Notes under the pieces: model-generated
Database searches by the model: none
Seen by the model: only the letters and a program-made list of their open reading frames with translations
What the model was told of the DNA's origin: nothing
In this document: positions 13,884 to 42,720 of the stretch, one piece after another
How positions within the stretch are numbered: position 1 is the stretch's first letter
How the letters are laid out: each line of letters starts with the position of its first letter
Sequence record: NC_047740.1
From: Enterobacteria phage phiJLA23
DNA length: 43,017 nucleotides
Strand: one strand, 5' to 3'
Position numbers and translations under genes: made by a program

Positions 13884-13968
13884 TTGTTTCGATTGTTTGA
13901 TTATATCTCAATAGCTACCAAAATAGCACCCCGANGGGTGCTTCTTCCTTGTCAAAAAGTGCTATTAA
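13884..13968 (-). promoter_or_regulatory. Terminator (13917-13945) plus TATAAT -10 and conserved leader; degenerate palindrome over capsid stop
   Basis: Hairpin gcaccc-loop-gggtgc then T-run on minus strand after capsid stop; TATAAT; leader as in other composite promoters. Confidence 0.5.
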
Positions 13969-15003: not shown

Positions 15004-15823
15004 TTATGCATCAAGCCTTACAACTTCTATACACAGGTCTTGATTGTCGCTCACAACATAACCGACTGTAAATAGATTTATTGTTACTCTCCACGCCGTT
15101 CCTGTTGTGGTTTCATAAAAGCTAAAAACATATGGCCTTATTCTTTGAAATTCACCAATGCCAGTAACCAATGCTGTTCCAGTTACGGAAGATGAAGATA
15201 TTGCTGTCCTTACTGTTGTATTGAAGTAGTTATCTGTATTATTGAAGCCCTCAATATTACCTCTTATGTTCCTGGCAGTGCTTCCCTCATCAATCCAGGC
15301 TCTAATGCTAAAAGCANTTGGNGAATCAAGCCTTATACCACCGAGNNCNCNCCNNTCNTCGCCTTGAGGACCTNGCGGCCCCGCAGGGCCTGCCGGACCA
15401 GTGTCGACCTTGNGGCCNTGCNGCACCAGCTNCGCCTGCGGGACCTGCTGGACCNTGCGGACCAACCGGACCTTGTGGACCTGCTTCACCTGAACCCCCT
15501 CCTTCATCACTTGCAAAATCACCTTTAGCCAGAGCTGAAATATAAGCGCCATCCTCGAAGTGAGCATTGCCAAACCTTTTCCAGCCCTGCGCTAGATATC
15601 GGTTAACCCTGTTAACTAGCCCCTGAATTGTGGTGTCGGATGTAACCATGAAGTCTTCAACGTTGTTTGTTGTTCCTTTCGCCATCTTCATGCCAAAGAG
15701 GGTGCCGCTTAGCATCTGCACATCACCATATGGCTGAAAGCCTGATGACATCATCACTTTTACGTTCCTGGCTAAGATTTCAGGTGAATTCCCTACTGCC
15801 ATAGCAATTTCTGTGTAAGCCAT
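15004..15823 (-). CDS. Structural protein with collagen-like Gly-X-Y repeats (ORF disrupted by N-run 15300-15500)
   Basis: RBS aggaga 5 nt before ATG 15823; translation contains GEAGPQGPVGPxGPAGPAG; two overlapping ORFs (15326-15823, 15004-15573) rejoin if the N-rich tract is corrected. Confidence 0.5.
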
Positions 15824-19494: not shown

Positions 19495-19700
19495 TAATTT
19501 CTCCAATAAAAACGCCCCTGGTAAGGGGCAGTTTATCATGATTACTTAACTCCAGCTAGCCTCATTAACCTAGNTCTTGGGTCGNNCNNNNNNNNNANNC
19601 CGTCTGNNTNNNCTTTNNANNTTTTNTANTCNATAAAAAAGCCCCTGAGTAAGGGGCAGTTTATCATGATTACTTAACTCCAGCTAGCCTCATTAACCTA
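19495..19700. repeat. Tandem duplicated segment (~19507-19575 and ~19631-19700) around an N-run: probable assembly artifact containing the terminase terminator
   Basis: Two near-identical copies of the large terminase 3' end plus terminator hairpin, separated by Ns 19575-19635. Confidence 0.7.
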
Positions 19701-21238
19701 GCTCTTGGGTCGTCACTCAAGTTCAATTCACAGTTTATTGCCATCGTTGTTGTATCTACAATGTCATCATGGGGGTGTGAATCGTCCGCAGTGAACGCCG
19801 AGAACTCAGTTAGCAGAGATGTAAGCCATGGCGCTGAGTCTGGCAGAACTACGTTACCAGCCTTAATCTGTGGTAATGCGCTCATCACCCTGGTTAACTT
19901 ATCTGTATCGGGAACGAAAGGCTCAATAGGAGTCCGCATCGTTCGACCTGCTGACTGGATAAGCCCTATGCCAGATGCTTTCTTCTCGATAATAACCTTA
20001 CGTAAGATACCATCTGTTTTACTAGCTGCTCGGTGCTTACTCTCAAAGTTCAGAAGAGTTTGCTCAAGCTCTGGAGCCTCCCATTTACCCCTAACCATAT
20101 CCAGAAGATAAATCTTGTTATCCTTTCTACCCCAAAGCTGGAACACAGAATAATCGCTGTAACTCTTCGTAGTCATGGCAGTATCAGCTGTAATGAAGCG
20201 GTAGTCATACTTGACTGGCGGCCTGTTGTTCTCGTCAAGCCTCACGAACCAATCTACGTTAATCAGGTTTCCACCTAAGGCTACTGGAGATTGTTGGTAC
20301 TGGCTTAGGAACGTGTACGGATCTGAGTCCCACATTGCCATCAAGTCATGCGCAGATTCCTTCTGCGGGAAGTAGCTGTAATACTTAACACCATCTCGCT
20401 CGACGTACTCGGATGAAAGCACGTCCTTCTCGAACTGCTCACGAATCCAGTCAGGAAGTTCATTCACATATTCTTCAGTGACCAGCGCCGGTATCTTCAA
20501 TACATCAAAGTCGATACCCATACCACCAGAAGTCATGAACCACGTCGAATCCTGCGTATGAAGCCTTTGCTGGATGGACAAAATCGGCGTAGCTTTACCT
20601 TTAACGCTACTCGCCCTACGTGAGCGAATGGTATTTTTAAGTAAAACGTGGACAGCTTCTCGCCTTACCTTGCTGAGCATATCGTCTGGCTTGTCTGGGT
20701 CATCAAGCATCAAGCAACCGCTATAGGTTTCAGTAATATAACCGCCACGAGCGCCGGTAATCTGACCGCCAATTGCCTTAGATATCGCTTCGAACCTAAC
20801 CTTTCCACTCTCGTCAAGAACCTGAATCTCGTCATCCTTGCACGTGCCGAACTTACAGGGCCATAGTTCCTGAAACTCAGCTGACTTTATAAGGTCGCGA
20901 ACACGCTTAGAGTTGCGCTTCACCAGACTGTCAGAGAATGAGAGGCTCAGATTTCGCACCTTCTTTAGCTTAAGCATTGAGTATACAGGGAAGTGTATTG
21001 AAGTAATCTCGGTCTTCCCGGCCCCGGGAGCCACGTTAATGATGGTATCCCTACGCTCGCCACTAATAACCTCGTCAATTATTCGGCAAAGGTACTTGTG
21101 ATGCCAGTTAGGGATGTATCGCTCTCCCTGGCTTAGCTGAAACCACACGCGAAGGAATGCCTCGAAGCTGTGAGTGGACAGCACTTTAACTGCCAGCTTT
21201 TCGGCTGGCGTCATTTCTTCCCAAACCAATGTCTTCAT
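19670..21238 (-). CDS. Terminase large subunit
   Basis: 522 aa; Walker A NVAPGAGKT near N-terminus; start overlaps small terminase stop (ATGA). Confidence 0.9.
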   Translation of the reverse strand: MKTLVWEEMTPAEKLAVKVLSTHSFEAFLRVWFQLSQGERYIPNWHHKYLCRIIDEVISGERRDTIINVAPGAGKTEITSIHFPVYSMLKLKKVRNLSLSFSDSLVKRNSKRVRDLIKSAEFQELWPCKFGTCKDDEIQVLDESGKVRFEAISKAIGGQITGARGGYITETYSGCLMLDDPDKPDDMLSKVRREAVHVLLKNTIRSRRASSVKGKATPILSIQQRLHTQDSTWFMTSGGMGIDFDVLKIPALVTEEYVNELPDWIREQFEKDVLSSEYVERDGVKYYSYFPQKESAHDLMAMWDSDPYTFLSQYQQSPVALGGNLINVDWFVRLDENNRPPVKYDYRFITADTAMTTKSYSDYSVFQLWGRKDNKIYLLDMVRGKWEAPELEQTLLNFESKHRAASKTDGILRKVIIEKKASGIGLIQSAGRTMRTPIEPFVPDTDKLTRVMSALPQIKAGNVVLPDSAPWLTSLLTEFSAFTADDSHPHDDIVDTTTMAINCELNLSDDPRARLMRLAGVK

Positions 21239-22127: not shown

Positions 22128-22402
22128 TAGAATGAGTCCCGCTTACCGAATGCGGGGAGGTTTCACAATCCTCGGAATGTCAAGCCCGACTTACTGCATT
22201 TATTGGTTCGCTTCAAGGAGTANNTGCGGTTTTATTTGCCTCGTATCTTTATCCAGCCCGGCTATCGGCTTGCATCTCCGCGATGCGCGTTACGGTCATT
22301 GCCGTCTACGTGGTTAATACTAACCACTTTTAACATTTTCGTCAAGCCATGACGACGAAATAAATCCACGTCAACATGCCAGCCAGGAACCAGATTGATA
22401 GC

Positions 22403-23395: not shown

Positions 23396-23466
23396 TTCCT
23401 CGTCTAATTTCGATAAAGTAATGGTAACGCATCCTTGCGATGGATGTTTAGCAATTTGTGCTATTT
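23396..23466 (-). promoter_or_regulatory. Composite early promoter (palindrome 23449-23463, hairpin, -10-like box, leader ATCGAAATTAGAC)
   Basis: Same ordered module as 268-332. Confidence 0.45.
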
Positions 23467-23700
23467 ACTGAAATAAATATCACGNTNCTCACCACGCTNC
23501 TTTCGAAGTTCATAAGCCTTATTAAGCGACTCAATAGCTTCATCAAGGTCTGTTAANANGTCCTTGTGCCCACGCANNCCNCNNANGCGNGNNAACNCAN
23601 CNCGCTCAACAATAAGTACCATACCCTCATCAGCAAGGCATTCGGTGTCGAATCCGTGATTTTCGTGAAAGTAAACTGCCTCATCAACTTCAATTATGCN
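23467..23700 (-). CDS. Probable gene obscured by N-run (hypothetical protein)
   Basis: Long open frame on minus strand through 23485-23700; stop codon lies inside the palindrome copy; start unresolved. Confidence 0.25.
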
Positions 23701-23841
23701 GTTTTAAAAAAATTCAAGCTCATATCTCAATCCTCGTTATTGTGCCGCCATGCGTCTTCTGCATTAACATGGCGTATCTCTCGTCTACGTAATGCAGGAG
23801 CATATCGATACCCCTGCTGCTGAATTTGTGTTCGTAGATTG

Positions 23842-24369: not shown

Positions 24370-24432
24370 TTGTTGTTGATAGGGTAATCATAGCTGACTA
24401 CCCAATTTATTGTTTAGCAATTTGTGCTATAT
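24370..24432 (-). promoter_or_regulatory. Composite early promoter (palindrome 24415-24429, TATGATTAC, leader TATCAACAACAAA)
   Basis: Palindrome also encodes the last residues and stop of the upstream gene. Confidence 0.45.
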
Positions 24433-24974
24433 TCACCATTCGGGAGAGCTTTCGCTTTCCGGTAGAACTGTATGGCCTTCTCCACCTCATCGGCATTATA
24501 GCCATGGATTGTTGTTTGCGGTGGCACGTAGTTTGAGCGTGGCACGTCGGATCGGCACTGACTGCACCAGTTTTGCACGTCGTCCTTATCCATCTCAACC
24601 AGGGCCGGATGAACATAAATCTTATCGCCAATGAGGCAAACAATTCCCGCCTCTTGTAGTTCTGGGATGATGTTATTTGTCAGGTCATGCATAATCCCTT
24701 CGCGCCCGACGAATGGCTGGACATTTCGTATTGCCTCGTATAGAGATCGAATGCCAACCACTCCATTCCAGCCATGGCGGCTAATCCTGCTAACTACGAC
24801 ACCGTATTTGTAGCTCAACTTGACGCACAGCATCTCTTCGGCGCTGGGCCAGAAATTGAATGATTGGCGGTATCCATTAGTACTGATTGCCACACGAAGT
24901 GGCGGCAGGTTATCTTGCCTGGCGACTTCCATCACCTGGTCATCAGTTAACTTATCCTCGTTGAAATCAAACAT
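24414..24974 (-). CDS. Hypothetical protein; truncated paralog of the P-loop ATPase 26758-28341 (shares its N- and C-terminal segments, lacks the ATPase core)
   Basis: N-terminus MFDFNEDKLTDDQVMEVARQDNLPPLRVAISTNGYRQS and segment VVGIRSLYEA...CLIGDKIYVHP align with both ends of the 527-aa protein; strong RBS aaggag. Confidence 0.6.
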   Translation of the reverse strand: MFDFNEDKLTDDQVMEVARQDNLPPLRVAISTNGYRQSFNFWPSAEEMLCVKLSYKYGVVVSRISRHGWNGVVGIRSLYEAIRNVQPFVGREGIMHDLTNNIIPELQEAGIVCLIGDKIYVHPALVEMDKDDVQNWCSQCRSDVPRSNYVPPQTTIHGYNADEVEKAIQFYRKAKALPNGEYSTNC

Positions 24975-25237
24975 TATTTAGTCTCCTTAATCATTTCCTG
25001 ATATGCGTTAATCATAGCTACCGCACCCTTCAGTTCATCTCCACTCATTCCTGCTACGCTGGGGAAAGCTTAAGTAGCCTAGCTTTAAACTCGCTTACCG
25101 CTTTCTCCCTTATTGGACTGTTTGTCTTAGCTCGNGGTTNCNTNNNNACNACGCNGAANTNCATNCAGAAGANNATTTTCTGTGCTGCGATGGACTTGGC
25201 TGCGTCGAATGTTTACCATTTATTTGAGGATTGAGAT

Positions 25238-25702: not shown

Positions 25703-26062
25703 ATGATTATGATTAACATGATCACTAAAAANGGCATCANCTCAGATAACAATCTGTTTAAAGCTCGCGTTAAAGATGGTATTGAGCAAATCAAGATTCA
25801 TGGTAAATGGCAAAATCTCACTGAGCGGGGGCGTTACATCAAGACTAAGACTCTTTATGTCACATTTGTTAACCATAAATCAGGAGTATCAAAGTCATTC
25901 AAGCAAGGTCGTCGCTATCAGGTAGAAATGACCGCATCTCTTGGACAGAACGCTGGTAAAATATTTGATGAAGATGGTGACTCATGGACGCTGATTCGCT
26001 CTGAAGATGTTGGATTTACAACTGTTTGCGGAACTTATAAATTCGAGAGCCAATACAAATGA
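25703..26062 (+). CDS. Hypothetical protein (119 aa)
   Basis: ATG 25703 after RBS aaagga (ORF track starts at a non-ATG codon, 25637, inside the palindrome). Confidence 0.55.
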   Translation: MIMINMITKXGIXSDNNLFKARVKDGIEQIKIHGKWQNLTERGRYIKTKTLYVTFVNHKSGVSKSFKQGRRYQVEMTASLGQNAGKIFDEDGDSWTLIRSEDVGFTTVCGTYKFESQYK

Positions 26063-26253
26063 ATGAGACAGTAAGAATTTACATAACAAAAGATTCAATT
26101 TATTGCAAGTCTATACAACACGGCACTAAGTACAGATACTGCAAAGATAGAGGCTATTTTTGCGTGGTTGATTTCATTACTAGAAAATGGTTGCTTGAAA
26201 CTTTCATAGATAAAATGCCTAGTAATAAGCTATCATCTGGCGAAAGGTTTTAA
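26059..26253 (+). CDS. Hypothetical Cys-containing protein (64 aa)
   Basis: ATGA overlap with upstream gene. Confidence 0.5.
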   Translation: MNETVRIYITKDSIYCKSIQHGTKYRYCKDRGYFCVVDFITRKWLLETFIDKMPSNKLSSGERF

Positions 26254-26255
26254 TT

Positions 26256-26312
26256 AATAGCACTTTTTGCTAATGACACTACCCGCTTCGGCGGGTATAT
26301 TTGTTTCCATCA
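26256..26312 (+). promoter_or_regulatory. Composite early promoter (palindrome 26258-26272, hairpin acccgcttcggcgggt, TATATT, leader CCATCAAGAAGACAAAC)
   Basis: Same module; starts 2 nt after upstream stop. Confidence 0.45.
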
Positions 26313-26338
26313 AGAAGACAAACACTAAGGTGAACAAA

Positions 26339-26455
26339 ATGAAAAACATCTCTAAAGCAGTTGATGCGGTAATGGAACAAGTAATTAAGTTTGGTTTCTT
26401 TGGCTTCATGGGCGCAATCGCTGTTGTAGTTGGCAAATGTCTGGTTGGTCTTTAA
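26339..26455 (+). CDS. Small hydrophobic membrane peptide (38 aa)
   Basis: RBS aaggtg before ATG 26339; C-terminal FGFFGFMGAIAVVVGKCLVGL. Confidence 0.4.
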   Translation: MKNISKAVDAVMEQVIKFGFFGFMGAIAVVVGKCLVGL

Positions 26456-26517
26456 TGGCACTTTTTGCTAAAGACCTTAACAACAAAAATTGATATATTC
26501 TCTTCATCGAAACGAAA
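26454..26517 (+). promoter_or_regulatory. Composite early promoter (variant palindrome TGGCA-N5-TGCTA 26456-26470, TATATT 26494-26499, leader CATCGAAACGAAA 26505-26517)
   Basis: Same module, left arm one mismatch. Confidence 0.45.
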
Positions 26518-26537
26518 TACATTAAAAGGGCTAAAAA

Positions 26538-26717
26538 ATGGATATCATGACTACTATCGAAAACATCAAACCTGGCATGATGGTAAAAATGGGGCCACTG
26601 TTCCGCAAAGTACTTCACGTTGACCTTAAGGAGAATATCATCACCGTAATGATTAGAGGTCGCGCAAAGCTGTATCTTCCTCATAAAGGTCAGATGATTG
26701 AAGTTCGTATCAAGTAA
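26538..26717 (+). CDS. Hypothetical small protein (59 aa)
   Basis: RBS aaaaggg before ATG 26538; terminator-like hairpin gccccttcgggggc 26724-26737 follows. Confidence 0.45.
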   Translation: MDIMTTIENIKPGMMVKMGPLFRKVLHVDLKENIITVMIRGRAKLYLPHKGQMIEVRIK

Positions 26718-26757
26718 ATAATCAAGCCCCTTCGGGGGCATTTAGAGAGAGATGATA

Positions 26758-28341
26758 ATGTTTGATTTTAATGATGACAAATTGACTGTTGAACAAGTAA
26801 TGGCTGTTGCCGCTCAGGATGGATTACCTCCTTTACGTGTTGCTATTAATGCGAACGGTTATCGCCAGAGCGCATCATTCTGGAAAGCTCCGGTTGAGAT
26901 TGATTCTACTGGCGACAAGTATCCTGTTATCTCGCTTGGTAACGACTATGATGTAGTTGGCAAACTATCAAGCAACATTGCTCGTTCTGTTCAGTTTCCT
27001 GAATCATCTGCTTATATGCACTTCCTTGGTTGCATCTCGGCAGCTATGTTAGGTCGCTTTACGGTTGAGTATCACGGAACTCAACAACCAACATCACTGT
27101 ATGTAGTGACCAGCCAGCCTCCATCAACTGGTAAATCCGCCATTAACTCGCTGTCTCTGGCTCCAATGATTGCAGAGACTGAGCGACTAAACGATCTGCG
27201 TAAGCGTGACCGTAAAAAGATTATGGCCAAGCTGTCGGCTCTGGCTAAAGAAATGAAGCAGGAGAAGTCGCCTTCTGAGATGGCTGGTTTGTTTGAGGAG
27301 AAGGAGGAGCTGGAAGATAAGCTCGAGAAACTTTGCGACATCGTATTCCCTGTATCTGATACTACTCCTGAAGGTCTGGCACGCATTAACCATCGTCAGG
27401 GTAGCTTCGCTGTCATCTCGGATGAGGCGACGAGCGTCAACTCACTGCTTGGCATGACCTATGGTGATGGAACAAAGAAAACAAACAGCGAACTGGTACT
27501 TAAGGCCTGGGATGCTGGTAACGTATCTATCGCGCGTGCGAACGCAGAGAACAACATGAGCTTTATTGCTATGGGGTGTATTTCTGTAATTGCGCAGGAT
27601 GAAACAATAGTCGCAATCATGAATGCTGGTGCTCGCGGTATTGGTGTATCCGAACGTTTCTTGCTTGTGCGTGAAAAGTCATTCCTTGGTGAGCGTGTTT
27701 TCGTCGATGATAATGGCGAGTCAACATATGAGCCGATTGACGGAGCGTTGAAGGCTGATTACTTCCGTCTTGTTCATGAAATTATGAGTGAGCAAGATGT
27801 GAAGTTGACTATTAGTAACTCAGCAATGAAGCACCTTAACCGTGCTCGACAGGAAATGGAGCCACACCTTGCGGATGGCGGCAAGTATTCACACACAATG
27901 CTCCGTGGCGCACTAGGTAAAATGGATAAGCAGGTTATTCGCCTTGCTGCCGTTCTTCACACCATACGTAACTGGTTTAATCCAAATGGCGGTAGTCCGC
28001 AGAAGTCCAGGGAGATTGGACTGGAAACGATGCAGGAGGCTTTATTGATGTTTGAAGAACTTAGCAAGACTTACTTATCTTCTGCTAACGCAGCTGGTCA
28101 TGCTGGCGATAACGCTGAGATGAACAAGTTAATTGATATCCTTATCAAGCAAGGCAAGAACAGTAAAGGAGTTGTGGGTTTGCGCTCACTTTATGAAGCT
28201 GCGCGTAAGGTTCGACCTTTCGAGTCACAGGCTGGTGTTATGGCTAAAATTAAAGACCACTTACTCCCGATGCTTGATGATAAAAACTATACCTGCCTGA
28301 TTGGTGACAAGGTATATATCAATCCACGGCTGCTGGGGTAA
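26758..28341 (+). CDS. Replication-associated P-loop ATPase (putative initiator or helicase-loader type)
   Basis: Walker A SQPPSTGKSA and Walker B-like FAVISDEATS; N- and C-termini homologous to the 186-aa protein at 24414-24974; start at second ATG (MFDFNDDK) by paralog alignment. Confidence 0.65.
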   Translation: MFDFNDDKLTVEQVMAVAAQDGLPPLRVAINANGYRQSASFWKAPVEIDSTGDKYPVISLGNDYDVVGKLSSNIARSVQFPESSAYMHFLGCISAAMLGRFTVEYHGTQQPTSLYVVTSQPPSTGKSAINSLSLAPMIAETERLNDLRKRDRKKIMAKLSALAKEMKQEKSPSEMAGLFEEKEELEDKLEKLCDIVFPVSDTTPEGLARINHRQGSFAVISDEATSVNSLLGMTYGDGTKKTNSELVLKAWDAGNVSIARANAENNMSFIAMGCISVIAQDETIVAIMNAGARGIGVSERFLLVREKSFLGERVFVDDNGESTYEPIDGALKADYFRLVHEIMSEQDVKLTISNSAMKHLNRARQEMEPHLADGGKYSHTMLRGALGKMDKQVIRLAAVLHTIRNWFNPNGGSPQKSREIGLETMQEALLMFEELSKTYLSSANAAGHAGDNAEMNKLIDILIKQGKNSKGVVGLRSLYEAARKVRPFESQAGVMAKIKDHLLPMLDDKNYTCLIGDKVYINPRLLG

Positions 28342-28345
28342 TTAA

Positions 28346-28681
28346 ATGTTCATCCTTGATGTGTTCAAGTTCTGCGAGAGCTACGAAAAGTTTAACAGGC
28401 AGCACCTGGCGGTATTCATTTACCGCCACAAAGAATGTGAAAGAATGGCTAAGGCAGCTGGAGTTAATGCGCGTTACTTTGCATCATCTGCGTCAAAGGA
28501 GTTTCTGGCAAGATGCATGACTGAAGGTTACATCGATGGAGTTAATGGCAGTTACTGGAGCAAAGGAAGCACGAAGCGACCATTCGGTTTTAGCTTTAGG
28601 TGCCTCGGAGGTGAGAGTGATAAGTACACCAATGAGATGATGACCATAAAAGAAATGACAGACGACCAACTGTTCGCGTAA
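28346..28681 (+). CDS. Hypothetical protein (111 aa)
   Basis: ORF 5 nt after ATPase stop; ends at bidirectional terminator. Confidence 0.5.
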   Translation: MFILDVFKFCESYEKFNRQHLAVFIYRHKECERMAKAAGVNARYFASSASKEFLARCMTEGYIDGVNGSYWSKGSTKRPFGFSFRCLGGESDKYTNEMMTIKEMTDDQLFA

Positions 28682-28685
28682 AATA

Positions 28686-28710
28686 AAGGAGCCATTAGGC
28701 TCCTTTTTTG
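28686..28710. terminator. Bidirectional terminator (hairpin ggagccattaggctcc, T6)
   Basis: Between convergent genes ending at 28681 and 28695. Confidence 0.7.
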
Positions 28711-29099
28711 TTTCCTGCGAATCTTAAAGCGAAGTAAGTTAGCAAACCTGAAACTAATCCAGCCAGAATACCCCAGACTAAAGAGTCAACCCCAGAGTTT
28801 TCAGTGCTATGAATTTCAATCTTTTCAGCTGTTATTGTGTTAGCTGAGAGACCCGTAGCAGCAGTCTTTTTATGGCTTGATGAATCTACATCTCTGTTAG
28901 TTGAGTTGCGCATATCGCTCTCTGTTGAGCTAGATTTGTCTGTCTGGCTGGATAATCCAACGCCAGTTTTCTGGTTTGACTCGCCAACCTGCGCCGTTGC
29001 CTCGACGCCATCCTTTGCTGGTAAGAAATCAGAAATGGCTGACATAGCAGAGCAGCCAGTCAGTGATGCAATTACCAGAACTACAATTCCGAGACGCAT
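28695..29099 (-). CDS. Unimolecular spanin (u-spanin, T1 gp11-type)
   Basis: N-terminal lipoprotein signal with lipobox LTGC plus C-terminal transmembrane helix LVWGILAGLVSGLLTYFAL in one polypeptide; directly after endolysin. Confidence 0.75.
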   Translation of the reverse strand: MRLGIVVLVIASLTGCSAMSAISDFLPAKDGVEATAQVGESNQKTGVGLSSQTDKSSSTESDMRNSTNRDVDSSSHKKTAATGLSANTITAEKIEIHSTENSGVDSLVWGILAGLVSGLLTYFALRFAGNKKGA

Positions 29100-29564
29100 A
29101 GCTTAATCTCCGCGTTACGCCTGTTAACCAGGCCTTTGCTAACAACTTTNTTACCACCAACGCTGATTTTATTCCATAGATAACGCCTCGCATCCTCCCC
29201 TGATATCACCACGATTTATGCGCCTTATAGCAGTTGAATTGCGCATTGCACTGGTTCCAACATTGAATGAAAAACTGTACAGCGCCGCCCTGGTGCTAAC
29301 TGGAACATTAACCTTCAGCGCTTTATCTACAGCAGCTCTATGAATTGAAAGGTGCTTCATCAGGAGTGCATCGCATTCTCTCTGGGTGTACTTTTTACCG
29401 AGAATAACATCAGGACCAGTGATTCCCTGGCAAACAGTCCACACTCCAGCAATATCTCTGTAAGGCCTGTACTTAACTCCTTCATGCTCATTCAGGAACG
29501 GAATAGCTAATGCCATGGCTCCAGCCACAGCCGAACCAATGACCTTATTCTTGAAGCTCATCAT
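29081..29564 (-). CDS. SAR endolysin (T4-lysozyme-like), frameshifted in this assembly
   Basis: N-terminal signal-anchor-release segment; catalytic spacing E..D(+9)..T(+6); annotated frame stops at 29169 but +1 frame continues to 29081 with lysozyme-like C-terminus (GLVNRRNAEIKL). Confidence 0.7.
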
Positions 29565-29776
29565 TTACTCCTGATTCTCATTGCCTCTCGAATGTCACCA
29601 TCCTCAAGTGCTTTATGGAGCGCCTTACTGTCACGCCATCGCAGCCATGCGCCAAAAATACCAAAGCATACGGCGATAACTAAGCCGATAATGCCGATGA
29701 TTGTGTTGTCAGATAAACCGCCGCCCATAGCTACTCCGCTACCGGATAAGGCGGCTGCGTCATAGAAATGCTTCAT
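29561..29776 (-). CDS. Holin (putative)
   Basis: 71 aa with hydrophobic helix and charged C-terminus; ATGA-coupled upstream of endolysin; RBS aagagg. Confidence 0.6.
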   Translation of the reverse strand: MKHFYDAAALSGSGVAMGGGLSDNTIIGIIGLVIAVCFGIFGAWLRWRDSKALHKALEDGDIREAMRIRSK

Positions 29777-29806
29777 GTTGCGGCCTCTTTAAGTTGATTT
29801 GATTAA

Positions 29807-29866
29807 ATAATACCAGATATTAAACTTTGACATAAACGAAAAAAGGCAGCCTTAAAGGCCGCCTGT
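29807..29866 (-). promoter_or_regulatory. Terminator hairpin (29845-29865, T6) followed by TATTAT -10-like box (29807-29812) upstream of lysis cassette
   Basis: aggcggcc-ttta-aggctgcc then tttttt; -10-like hexamer; RBS; holin ATG. Confidence 0.45.
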
Positions 29867-29884
29867 TTTCAAGTTGATGTTTCT

Positions 29885-30064
29885 TATAAGTTAGTCTGCG
29901 ATAATGAATTCCACCAATTCTCCATCAATCGGGGTGAAGATCCAAGTCATGTCATCTCCATAAATCTTGTAATTACCATCCCCCTGGTACTCACCACTGT
30001 AAGGGTTGTTTACAGTGAAAGGCAGTGATTTTGATTTGTTGCTAACGCAGAATAATTTAGTCAT
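29885..30064 (-). CDS. Hypothetical small protein (59 aa)
   Basis: ORF filling the gap between 30077 and the terminator; below ORF-track cut-off. Confidence 0.35.
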
Positions 30065-30076
30065 TTTGATAATCTC

Positions 30077-30265
30077 TTAACGGTTTACGCAAATAAGTGT
30101 GTTTACATTAATTGGGAAGCAGTTACCGCCCATGGTCTTAATCATTACGAACGTACAGCTAGGGTAATACTCAAGGCTTGTGGCCTTAACTTTTTGCCGT
30201 TGGCAATTTGAGAACAAAACCTCATCACCCACCTTTACCATATCAGCTTTAATTGTTTGCAACAT
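30077..30265 (-). CDS. Hypothetical protein (62 aa)
   Basis: ORF coupled to upstream gene. Confidence 0.5.
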   Translation of the reverse strand: MLQTIKADMVKVGDEVLFSNCQRQKVKATSLEYYPSCTFVMIKTMGGNCFPINVNTLICVNR

Positions 30266-30450
30266 TAACGCTCTCCAAGTGCCGCAAGGATTGCATAAGC
30301 GATCTCACGTGCATTCTTAGCAGTAAGGTTAATAGTGTCAACCTTTACATCTTCTTCGCTAGTTCCGTAAGCCTGTGCAATCCGAAATGTCTTACCAAAA
30401 CCAACATCTTTAACTTCAATCTGTGCATCTGATTGTGTGAACTTAGCCAT
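30265..30450 (-). CDS. Hypothetical protein (61 aa)
   Basis: Preceded by composite promoter with leader CATCAAAACAAAAC and RBS gagagga. Confidence 0.5.
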   Translation of the reverse strand: MAKFTQSDAQIEVKDVGFGKTFRIAQAYGTSEEDVKVDTINLTAKNAREIAYAILAALGER

Positions 30451-30451
30451 C

Positions 30452-30520
30452 TTTGTATCCTCTCGTTTTGTTTTGATGGAGTAAATATACCCCCTCTTTT
30501 NATTTGTNTTTTANTTNGTG
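30452..30520 (-). promoter_or_regulatory. Composite early promoter (TATATTTAC, leader CATCAAAACAAAAC; palindrome degraded by Ns)
   Basis: Module order conserved; upstream half-site region contains Ns. Confidence 0.35.
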
Positions 30521-31686: not shown

Positions 31687-32297
31687 ACTCATAAACAAGA
31701 AAACTTACATGCTTACCTTTCGCATCATTACACCCGTAGTACCCATCAAATTCATTATGTAACTTCCATGCAAATCCGTCATCGCTAACTATTTCAACCT
31801 GGTCATTAATCGGGTCAAGTTTGAATTCATACTCATTGAGCAGGGTGAATGAGCCGTTCGTCATTACGCAAGTCGCAGTAATCATGAAAAAATCCTCCGG
31901 GCAATCTTTCTTCATTTCTTCGATATCAGCAATCATTCGGTCNNNCCATGTTTCGATATCAGTGTTCAGATAACCCNCTTCTNAACTATTTAAACCNGTT
32001 CATTAATCGGGTCAAGTTTGAATTCATACTCATTGAGCAGGGTGAATGAGCCGTTCGTCATTACGCAAGTCGCAGTAATCATGAAAAATCCTCCGGGCAA
32101 TCTTTCTTCATTTCTTCGATATCAGCAATCATTCGGTCGCGCCATGTTTCGATATCAGTGTTCAGATAATCCTCTTCGAAACTATAATCAAGACACCAAG
32201 CTAAATCCCAAACATCATTTTTATATCCAGCTTTACTCAACTCCTGCGCCACCATTGCCTGAAAGAGTTCCCATTGCTTATCAAAGGTTAATTTCAT
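31685..32297 (-). CDS. Hypothetical acidic protein (about 155 aa in the true genome; interrupted by an artifactual ~198-bp tandem duplication)
   Basis: ORFs 32079-32297 and 31685-31936 share ...RMIADIEEMKKDCPEDF; copies differ by homopolymer length and Ns at the junction. Confidence 0.45.
31786..32181. repeat. Tandem ~198-bp duplication with N-rich junction (probable assembly artifact)
   Basis: Unit 31786-31983 repeats at 31984-32181; Ns at 31943-31997; A6 versus A5 run between copies. Confidence 0.7.
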
Positions 32298-39251: not shown

Positions 39252-39680
39252 TTAAAACGGAATATCATCTTCATCACTAAATCGGCTTTGTTGCTGCGGC
39301 TGCTGTCTCTGTTGCTGTTGAGCTTGTTGTCGCTGCTGCTGCTGTTCTGATTCACCTCCTCGCTGACTAAACATCAATCGAGGATTCTGCAACTCAAGCG
39401 TAATATATGTCTTGCCATTATGTTCGCGCTCATTAACCGCTAATGAATCGCCGCTCACAGAGATAACTTTTCCTTCCTGAAATGCTTCGTCATACCAGCT
39501 AATTTGCGCCTCGCTAGCAAAGAAGGTAGCTCGATAATTACTATACTTACGCTCTCCATCTCGTGTTTTATAAGATTCGCTCATTTCGATAGCGTACATC
39601 TTCCAGTTACCCTTGGCGTTCTGACCATCTTTACTGAACAGCGTCTTACCAACCATATCTAAGAATTTGTCCCAATTCAT
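39252..39680 (-). CDS. Single-stranded DNA-binding protein (SSB)
   Basis: OB-fold-like N-terminus, Gln-rich linker, canonical acidic C-terminal tail ending DEDDIPF. Confidence 0.8.
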   Translation of the reverse strand: MNWDKFLDMVGKTLFSKDGQNAKGNWKMYAIEMSESYKTRDGERKYSNYRATFFASEAQISWYDEAFQEGKVISVSGDSLAVNEREHNGKTYITLELQNPRLMFSQRGGESEQQQQRQQAQQQQRQQPQQQSRFSDEDDIPF

Positions 39681-42185: not shown

Positions 42186-42304
42186 TGTATATAGCTGTAA
42201 AACTCACATAAATACGCTTTGATGCTCTGTACGCCGCATGAATGCTGAATGTAACCCTTGTAACCAATGTATCCACCAAATTTGCACCCTATCTATATAT
42301 ATAT

Positions 42305-42720
42305 GCATTTTCTCCTTAACAGGAAATCAAACATAGTATTTTAGTAAAACACAACAACATAGCTATAGAGAGTAGTTACAAGATATACATAGTAATATAT
42401 ATAATAATAATAATACTCTAAACCCTTATTATATAAGGATTTATAAATGTAACTAATGCGTATCTTCGCGTAAAAAGCGTATACAATTTTCAGCGGATGA
42501 GATTGTATACATCGAGTTACATCGGTTACGCGTATATAAAATAGCNNGTTTTNTAAAAAACANNACAGNAGNCTTTTCCTTTANTACCNCCATCAAAACA
42601 AAANATACTGACTAAGGAATAAAAAATGAANAACTTCATAAAATCAGCAATCATCGCAGCAGCAGAACTNATGACGGTAGNTTGTTTCTGGTGNNCNCCC
42701 CCTTGACGGNTGGTGGGGGC
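42305..42720. repeat. Contig wrap-around overlap, copy 2 (low-quality duplicate of ~42-470)
   Basis: Matches window start including lipoprotein 5' end; many Ns. Confidence 0.8.

Follow-up and report, generated by a model that had tools for sequence, protein, structure and literature searches.

The split endolysin gene of phage phiJLA23 is probably a consensus or assembly error

The SAR endolysin gene in the genome record of Enterobacteria phage phiJLA23 is split by the loss of two bases, TG, from a TGTG dinucleotide repeat. The split is most probably an error in the consensus or the assembly of a record of draft quality, a reading to which we assign a probability of roughly 0.87. The dinucleotide would have been dropped from the consensus at a spot of low local confidence in a poor-quality 454/Geneious draft, and the actual phiJLA23 gene would encode the same 161-aa enzyme as gp46 of Escherichia phage C119. 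Hence, we infer that only the consensus lacks the TG, and that the phage DNA contains it. The analysis considered sequence record NC_047740.1 over its whole length of 43,017 nucleotides, referred to as the window, and all coordinates are given on it.

Lysis cassette organization

A compact lysis cassette occupies positions 29776–28695 of the minus strand, and is composed of the holin, endolysin and u-spanin ORFs presented in the ORF list. The holin (71 aa, 29561..29776, minus strand) leads the cassette, and its stop overlaps the endolysin start in the tetranucleotide ATGA. The PHROG 2877 holin matches it over its full length with an E-value of 2.7e-36, and the protein is 100% identical to C119 gp45. 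This small holin, located directly upstream of the endolysin, is presumed by analogy to be a pinholin, a character taken from the T1 family (Kongari 2018).

The unimolecular spanin (134 aa, 28695..29099, minus strand) presents the lipobox LTGC and, at its C-terminus, a transmembrane (hydrophobic) segment. It is matched full-length by the PHROG 1804 Rz-like spanin with an E-value of 1e-45, and is 100% identical to C119 gp47. Its ATG lies at 29099, which yields an overlap of 19 nt with the end of the restored endolysin, the same as in C119.

The closest known systems to the phiJLA23 lysis region are the Rogunavirus cassettes of C119 gp46 (YP_009615881.1) and phiKP26 gp65. Over the 1111-base lysis region, C119 and phiJLA23 are 99.7% identical, the only differences being one N and the missing two bases, and the overlaps of the endolysin gene with the holin and spanin genes are the same in both phages. 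Phage T1 (holin gp13, endolysin gp12, u-spanin gp11) has its gene order and u-spanin family in common with phiJLA23, although the two belong to different genera, T1 being a Tunavirus and phiJLA23 a Rogunavirus. The T1 gp11 u-spanin family includes phiJLA23, and the lysis cassettes of this family combine a pinholin with a SAR endolysin (Kongari et al. 2018). The cassette is the known Rogunavirus/T1-type module of (presumed) pinholin, SAR endolysin and u-spanin, with no new biology.

Upstream of the holin gene, a terminator-like hairpin is found on the minus strand at 29844-29864, with a T-tail one T shorter than that of C119.

Location of the frame break

The endolysin ORF as deposited (29169..29564, minus strand) terminates after 131 aa, ending in …RGGCEALSME*, where a TAA at 29171-29169 stops it prematurely. 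Over 29212–29081 the adjacent frame stays open, and it encodes …WNKISVGGXKVVSKGLVNRRNAEIKLCVSEL*, in which the X is due to an isolated N at 29150. The original prediction had described an endolysin frame that stops at 29169, a next frame that runs on to 29081 with a lysozyme-like C-terminus and overlaps the spanin start, and an N at 29150. The ORF list bears out the stop (131 aa, CEALSME*) and the second frame with its overlap, and the N is present in the sequence.

When C119 gp46 was searched against phiJLA23 with tblastn, residues 1-130 were matched in frame -2 (100% identity), and frame -3 supplied the match to residues 130-161. Up to and including residue 130, the penultimate codon before the stop, frame 0 agrees with the C119 endolysin at 100% identity. 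The displaced 3' end of the gene (29081..29176, minus strand), identified from the adjacent frame, the alignment and tblastn, comprises W131…L161 and a stop at 29083-29081. Alignment of both frames to related endolysins had been proposed as a check on the split, and this division of C119 gp46 between the two frames is what it returned.

In a megablast comparison of the lysis cassette against 50,697 phage records, a single place spans 80% or more of the query in 29 records; the best matches are Escherichia phage C119 (99.7% identity) and phiKP26 (99.4% identity). Among the matches listed, all full-length spans (27 of 27) measure 1113 bases, versus the 1111 bases of the query. In the nucleotide alignment, phiJLA23 reads TCTATG--GGAAT, versus TCTATGTGGAAT in C119, phiKP26 and Sf12. 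In the longer alignment, phiJLA23 reads TCTATG--GGAATAAA, C119 and phiKP26 read TCTATGTGGAATAAA, and Sf12, which has the same TG, reads TCAATGTGGAATAAA. The junction is read as TCTATGGAAT with the TG deletion and as TCTATGTGGAAT when intact.

The missing bases are therefore the TG of a TGTG dinucleotide repeat (…TCT ATG TGG AAT…), i.e., a 2-base deletion within ATG[TG]G at 29174-29176 (29174..29176, minus strand). The list of differences from C119 gives the same event as a deletion at 29176, corresponding to C119 33632-33631. Re-inserting the TG and reading the N as G produces, by reconstruction, a 161-aa protein identical to C119 gp46. Four relatives were aligned at the N (29150), and the base is G (codon AAG) in all except Rogue1, which has A; the codon specifies Lys either way.

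The original prediction located the cause of the shift in a GGGG run at 29195-29198. The run is actually found at 29197-29200 (29197..29200, minus strand), and the indel is elsewhere: the TG deletion lies approximately 22 nt downstream of the run, and 26 nt from the N.

Endolysin identity

The restored 161-aa protein scores 128.1 bits against Pfam's PF00959, covering profile positions 2-125 of 125. The deposited 131-aa ORF scores 101.6 bits and covers positions 2-105 of 125, i.e., it is truncated, and adding the displaced 3' part to the 5' part fills out the profile. The restored protein is a member of the GH24 phage lysozymes (PF00959). It aligns nearly end to end with R21 (PDB 3HDE/3HDF) and E. 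coli RrrD (PDB 4ZPU), with E-values of ~1e-38, and its residues E28, D37 and T43 fall on the R21 catalytic Glu-8aa-Asp-5aa-Thr triad (EGV…D…T of 3HDE/3HDF). The putative SAR segment comprises residues 8-24, VIGSAVAGAMALAIPFL, with a mean Kyte-Doolittle value of 2.09 and 47% G/A/S/T; it is preceded by the basic residues K5 and K7, and its assignment follows a sequence criterion only. Both the SAR segment (residues 8-24) and E28/D37/T43 are retained in the deposited 131-aa ORF.

The features common to this protein, R21 and RrrD are the GH24, T4-lysozyme-like fold family (PF00959) with E-8-D-5-T catalytic spacing, a weakly hydrophobic Gly/Ala-rich N-terminal segment immediately before the catalytic Glu, and a conserved C-terminus, W-x-x-x-GG-K…KGL…RR…E…C. 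In addition, the stretch of the phage 21 endolysin that aligns with GGCEALSM of the restored endolysin is KGACDQLRR. Sequence identity is, however, only ~50%, and the phiJLA23 cassette has a u-spanin in place of Rz/Rz1. As an enzyme of this type, the phiJLA23 endolysin would be exported by the sec route independently of the holin, tethered to the membrane, and released when the membrane is depolarised. These comparisons support the classification of the phiJLA23 endolysin as an ordinary R21-type SAR endolysin. The claim that the gene is a SAR endolysin split by a frameshift is likewise upheld by the R21 and PF00959 alignments together with the two-frame tblastn match.

An AlphaFold2 single-sequence model of the restored protein, intended for assessing the burial of the C-terminal 31 residues, was discarded for its mean pLDDT of 44.

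Distribution of the short form and constraint on the C-terminus

The exact 131-aa product was found once among ~15 billion proteins, as the phiJLA23 'putative phage-related lysozyme' in a cluster of one; the deposited protein is AGC35373.1 / YP_009784128.1. Scans for the junctions were exact, yet tolerant of known third-position variants. The short-form junction presented 0 exact matches in the viral, metagenome and genome contig collections, and the intact junction presented 3 matches in viral contigs. A short form shared by related phages would have pointed away from the original prediction, and none was found in the collections searched.

When the restored protein was searched with tblastn against the 50,697 phage records, homologues were found in 1013, and in 1005 of these 1013 a single place spans 80% or more of the protein. 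The sampled tblastn rows present a single-piece match reaching residues 157-161, and Salmonella phage 36 is the only two-piece match among them.

Over the last 31 codons, the ratio of synonymous to nonsynonymous changes within the Rogunavirinae is 5:0 for Sf12, 7:1 for e4/1c, and 14:7 for Rogue1. As these changes are mostly synonymous, they indicate the lost segment is under purifying selection. Furthermore, except at the N, both halves of the phiJLA23 endolysin are identical to C119 gp46, which is not what a decaying pseudogene would present.

Quality of the phiJLA23 assembly

Phage phiJLA23 originates from farm-animal faeces in Culiacán, Mexico, and is highly lytic on E. coli O157; its genome was sequenced with Roche GS Junior 454 and assembled with Geneious (genome announcement). 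C119, a phage of the same laboratory, has an intact endolysin gene, and its genome was sequenced with Illumina MiSeq at ~50x.

The phiJLA23 record (KC333879) contains 230 Ns in 138 runs, and is ~4.3 kb shorter than C119 (47,319 bp). Comparison of the two yields 13 colinear blocks and 12 breaks of colinearity. The N-rich joins at 15340/15397, 23576/23594, 25139/25166 and 30513/30559 lose 683, 166, 1324 and 1419 bases of C119, respectively. These joins cut genes internally: C119 gp03 (annotated as a tail fiber protein) is left without residues 115-370, and of the DNA repair exonuclease gp40 only the first 95 of 378 residues are left in phiJLA23. The joins resemble contigs abutted directly at read ends of poor quality. 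Tandem near-duplicates flank N-rich joins at 31787-31989 versus 31984-32185 (203 bp, 94.6% identical) and at 19506-19584 versus 19633-19712 (80 bp, 96% identical). Both are present in a single copy in C119, and they are most likely overlapping contig ends left unmerged.

The ends of the record also repeat each other: positions 29-443 and 42301-42715 are 89% identical over ~415 bp, with the repeat degraded by Ns. This is the untrimmed overlap of a circularly permuted or terminally redundant genome.

Differences from C119 are concentrated around the Ns. Positions within 30 nt of an N account for 3.4% of the aligned window, versus 25 of the 31 indel events (binomial p ~1e-31) and 49 of the 63 substitutions (binomial p ~1e-59), values to be read with the events being partly non-independent, as many are clustered. 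The pattern is unmistakable, and indicates most phiJLA23–C119 differences are noise around low-confidence consensus positions. Beyond 100 nt from the nearest N, only 9 substitutions and a single indel occur, the latter being a one-base homopolymer loss at 29844. The 454 chemistry is prone to homopolymer errors, and the loss of one base in a homopolymer run is the classical 454 error. Other deletions beside Ns are outside homopolymers, namely 2 bases at 23477 and 11 bases over 22214-22220, which places the TG loss within the error repertoire of this assembly.

Small genes at 23464-23718 and 24977-25164, the counterparts of C119 gp63, gp64 and gp58, are frameshifted or degraded beside N clusters. 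Hence, the endolysin is not the sole broken ORF in the record.

Evaluation of the explanations

The TG deletion lies near an N, in an assembly whose differences from C119 cluster around Ns, which is what is expected of an artefact. Over the 4.76 kb from 25736 to 30493, phiJLA23 presents zero substitutions relative to C119, the differences being the N, the TG deletion and the homopolymer loss at 29844. Given real divergence is expected to bring substitutions before frame-breaking indels, and this region has none, an artefact is favoured. Some observations nevertheless count against it. The nearest N to the deletion stands alone, with no dense cluster around it; a loss at TGTG is atypical of a 454 homopolymer miscall, and replication slippage could yield the same result; and an undecayed downstream frame is also expected from a very recent real mutation.

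The latter points correspond to a genuine and very recent deletion, in which the phiJLA23 DNA itself lost the TG by slippage at TGTG. The gene would then be a pseudogene in some of the stock, or else would encode a shortened 131-aa enzyme that still functions. We consider this unlikely as a whole. It would fit a lesion in a dinucleotide repeat, which is no homopolymer miscall, and a 131-aa ORF that keeps its SAR segment, E28/D37/T43 and 101.6 bits on PF00959. However, phiJLA23 is lytic, forms plaques, and in a later paper from the same institute was grown to 1e9 PFU/mL and titred by plaque assay (PMC3587941, PMC5953568), and plaques and a high titre require a working endolysin. Moreover, the 31 residues removed by the frameshift are conserved and subject to purifying selection, no public sequence searched other than phiJLA23 has the short form, and the deletion falls within an error-prone part of a faulty assembly, with zero substitutions across the surrounding 4.76 kb. 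That the deletion is real in a viable phage would mean the C-terminal 31 residues are dispensable, the fragments complement each other, or a low-level +1/-2 shift suffices, and this is very improbable.

Programmed frameshifting and an extra G in the GGGG run are both effectively excluded. In the former, a +1 or -2 ribosomal shift at UCU AUG G would produce the full-length endolysin; the frames do overlap, the downstream frame is intact, and an SD-like GGAGGA is found ~15 nt upstream of the site. Yet the site has neither a slippery motif nor a slow codon, and the two-frame arrangement is unconserved in all collections searched. Every relative examined has one continuous ORF, including phages that are substitution-free here and share the same upstream sequence, which indicates this context did not evolve for frameshifting. 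In the latter, a homopolymer over-call would cause the shift, in line with the general knowledge of the 454 error profile, and dropping one G formally joins the frames. The GGGG run and the 24 bases that follow it are, however, identical in C119 and phiKP26, and frame 0 matches homologues to residue 130, well beyond the run. Besides, removing one G yields 160 aa, instead of the 161 aa originally predicted, with EDARRYL where GGCEALSM is conserved. Of the two outcomes the original prediction allowed, an indel error in the contig or a pseudogene, the contig error is far better supported, although the proposed mechanism of one surplus G in a homopolymer was wrong.

Use of the phiJLA23 record

With the split attributed to a consensus or assembly error, it is mainly a matter of database hygiene, and brings no new biology. 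The truncated 131-aa 'endolysin' (AGC35373.1, YP_009784128.1, UniRef L7TMI6) circulates in public databases as a real protein, and the phiJLA23 record carries the label of a complete genome despite ~4 kb of missing or collapsed sequence. Published uses of phiJLA23 include allergenicity screening and biocontrol cocktails. For users of the phiJLA23 proteome, the C119 sequence is the proper guide.

Other differences from C119

At 39638-39655, phiJLA23 cleanly lacks the HNH endonuclease gene gp27 (528 bp) of C119, with no N within 2 kb, and the C119 HNH gene gp05 (552 bp) is absent at 13919/13920, with one N nearby. These absences may be real homing endonuclease presence/absence polymorphisms, and not assembly faults.

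In tblastn, C119 gp59 (a 186-aa hypothetical protein; 24417-24977) cross-matches the DNA helicase gp49 (26752-28338), the identity being 69% over residues 1-48 and 46-48% over a C-terminal piece. The gp59 gene may be a paralogous fragment made of the helicase ends.
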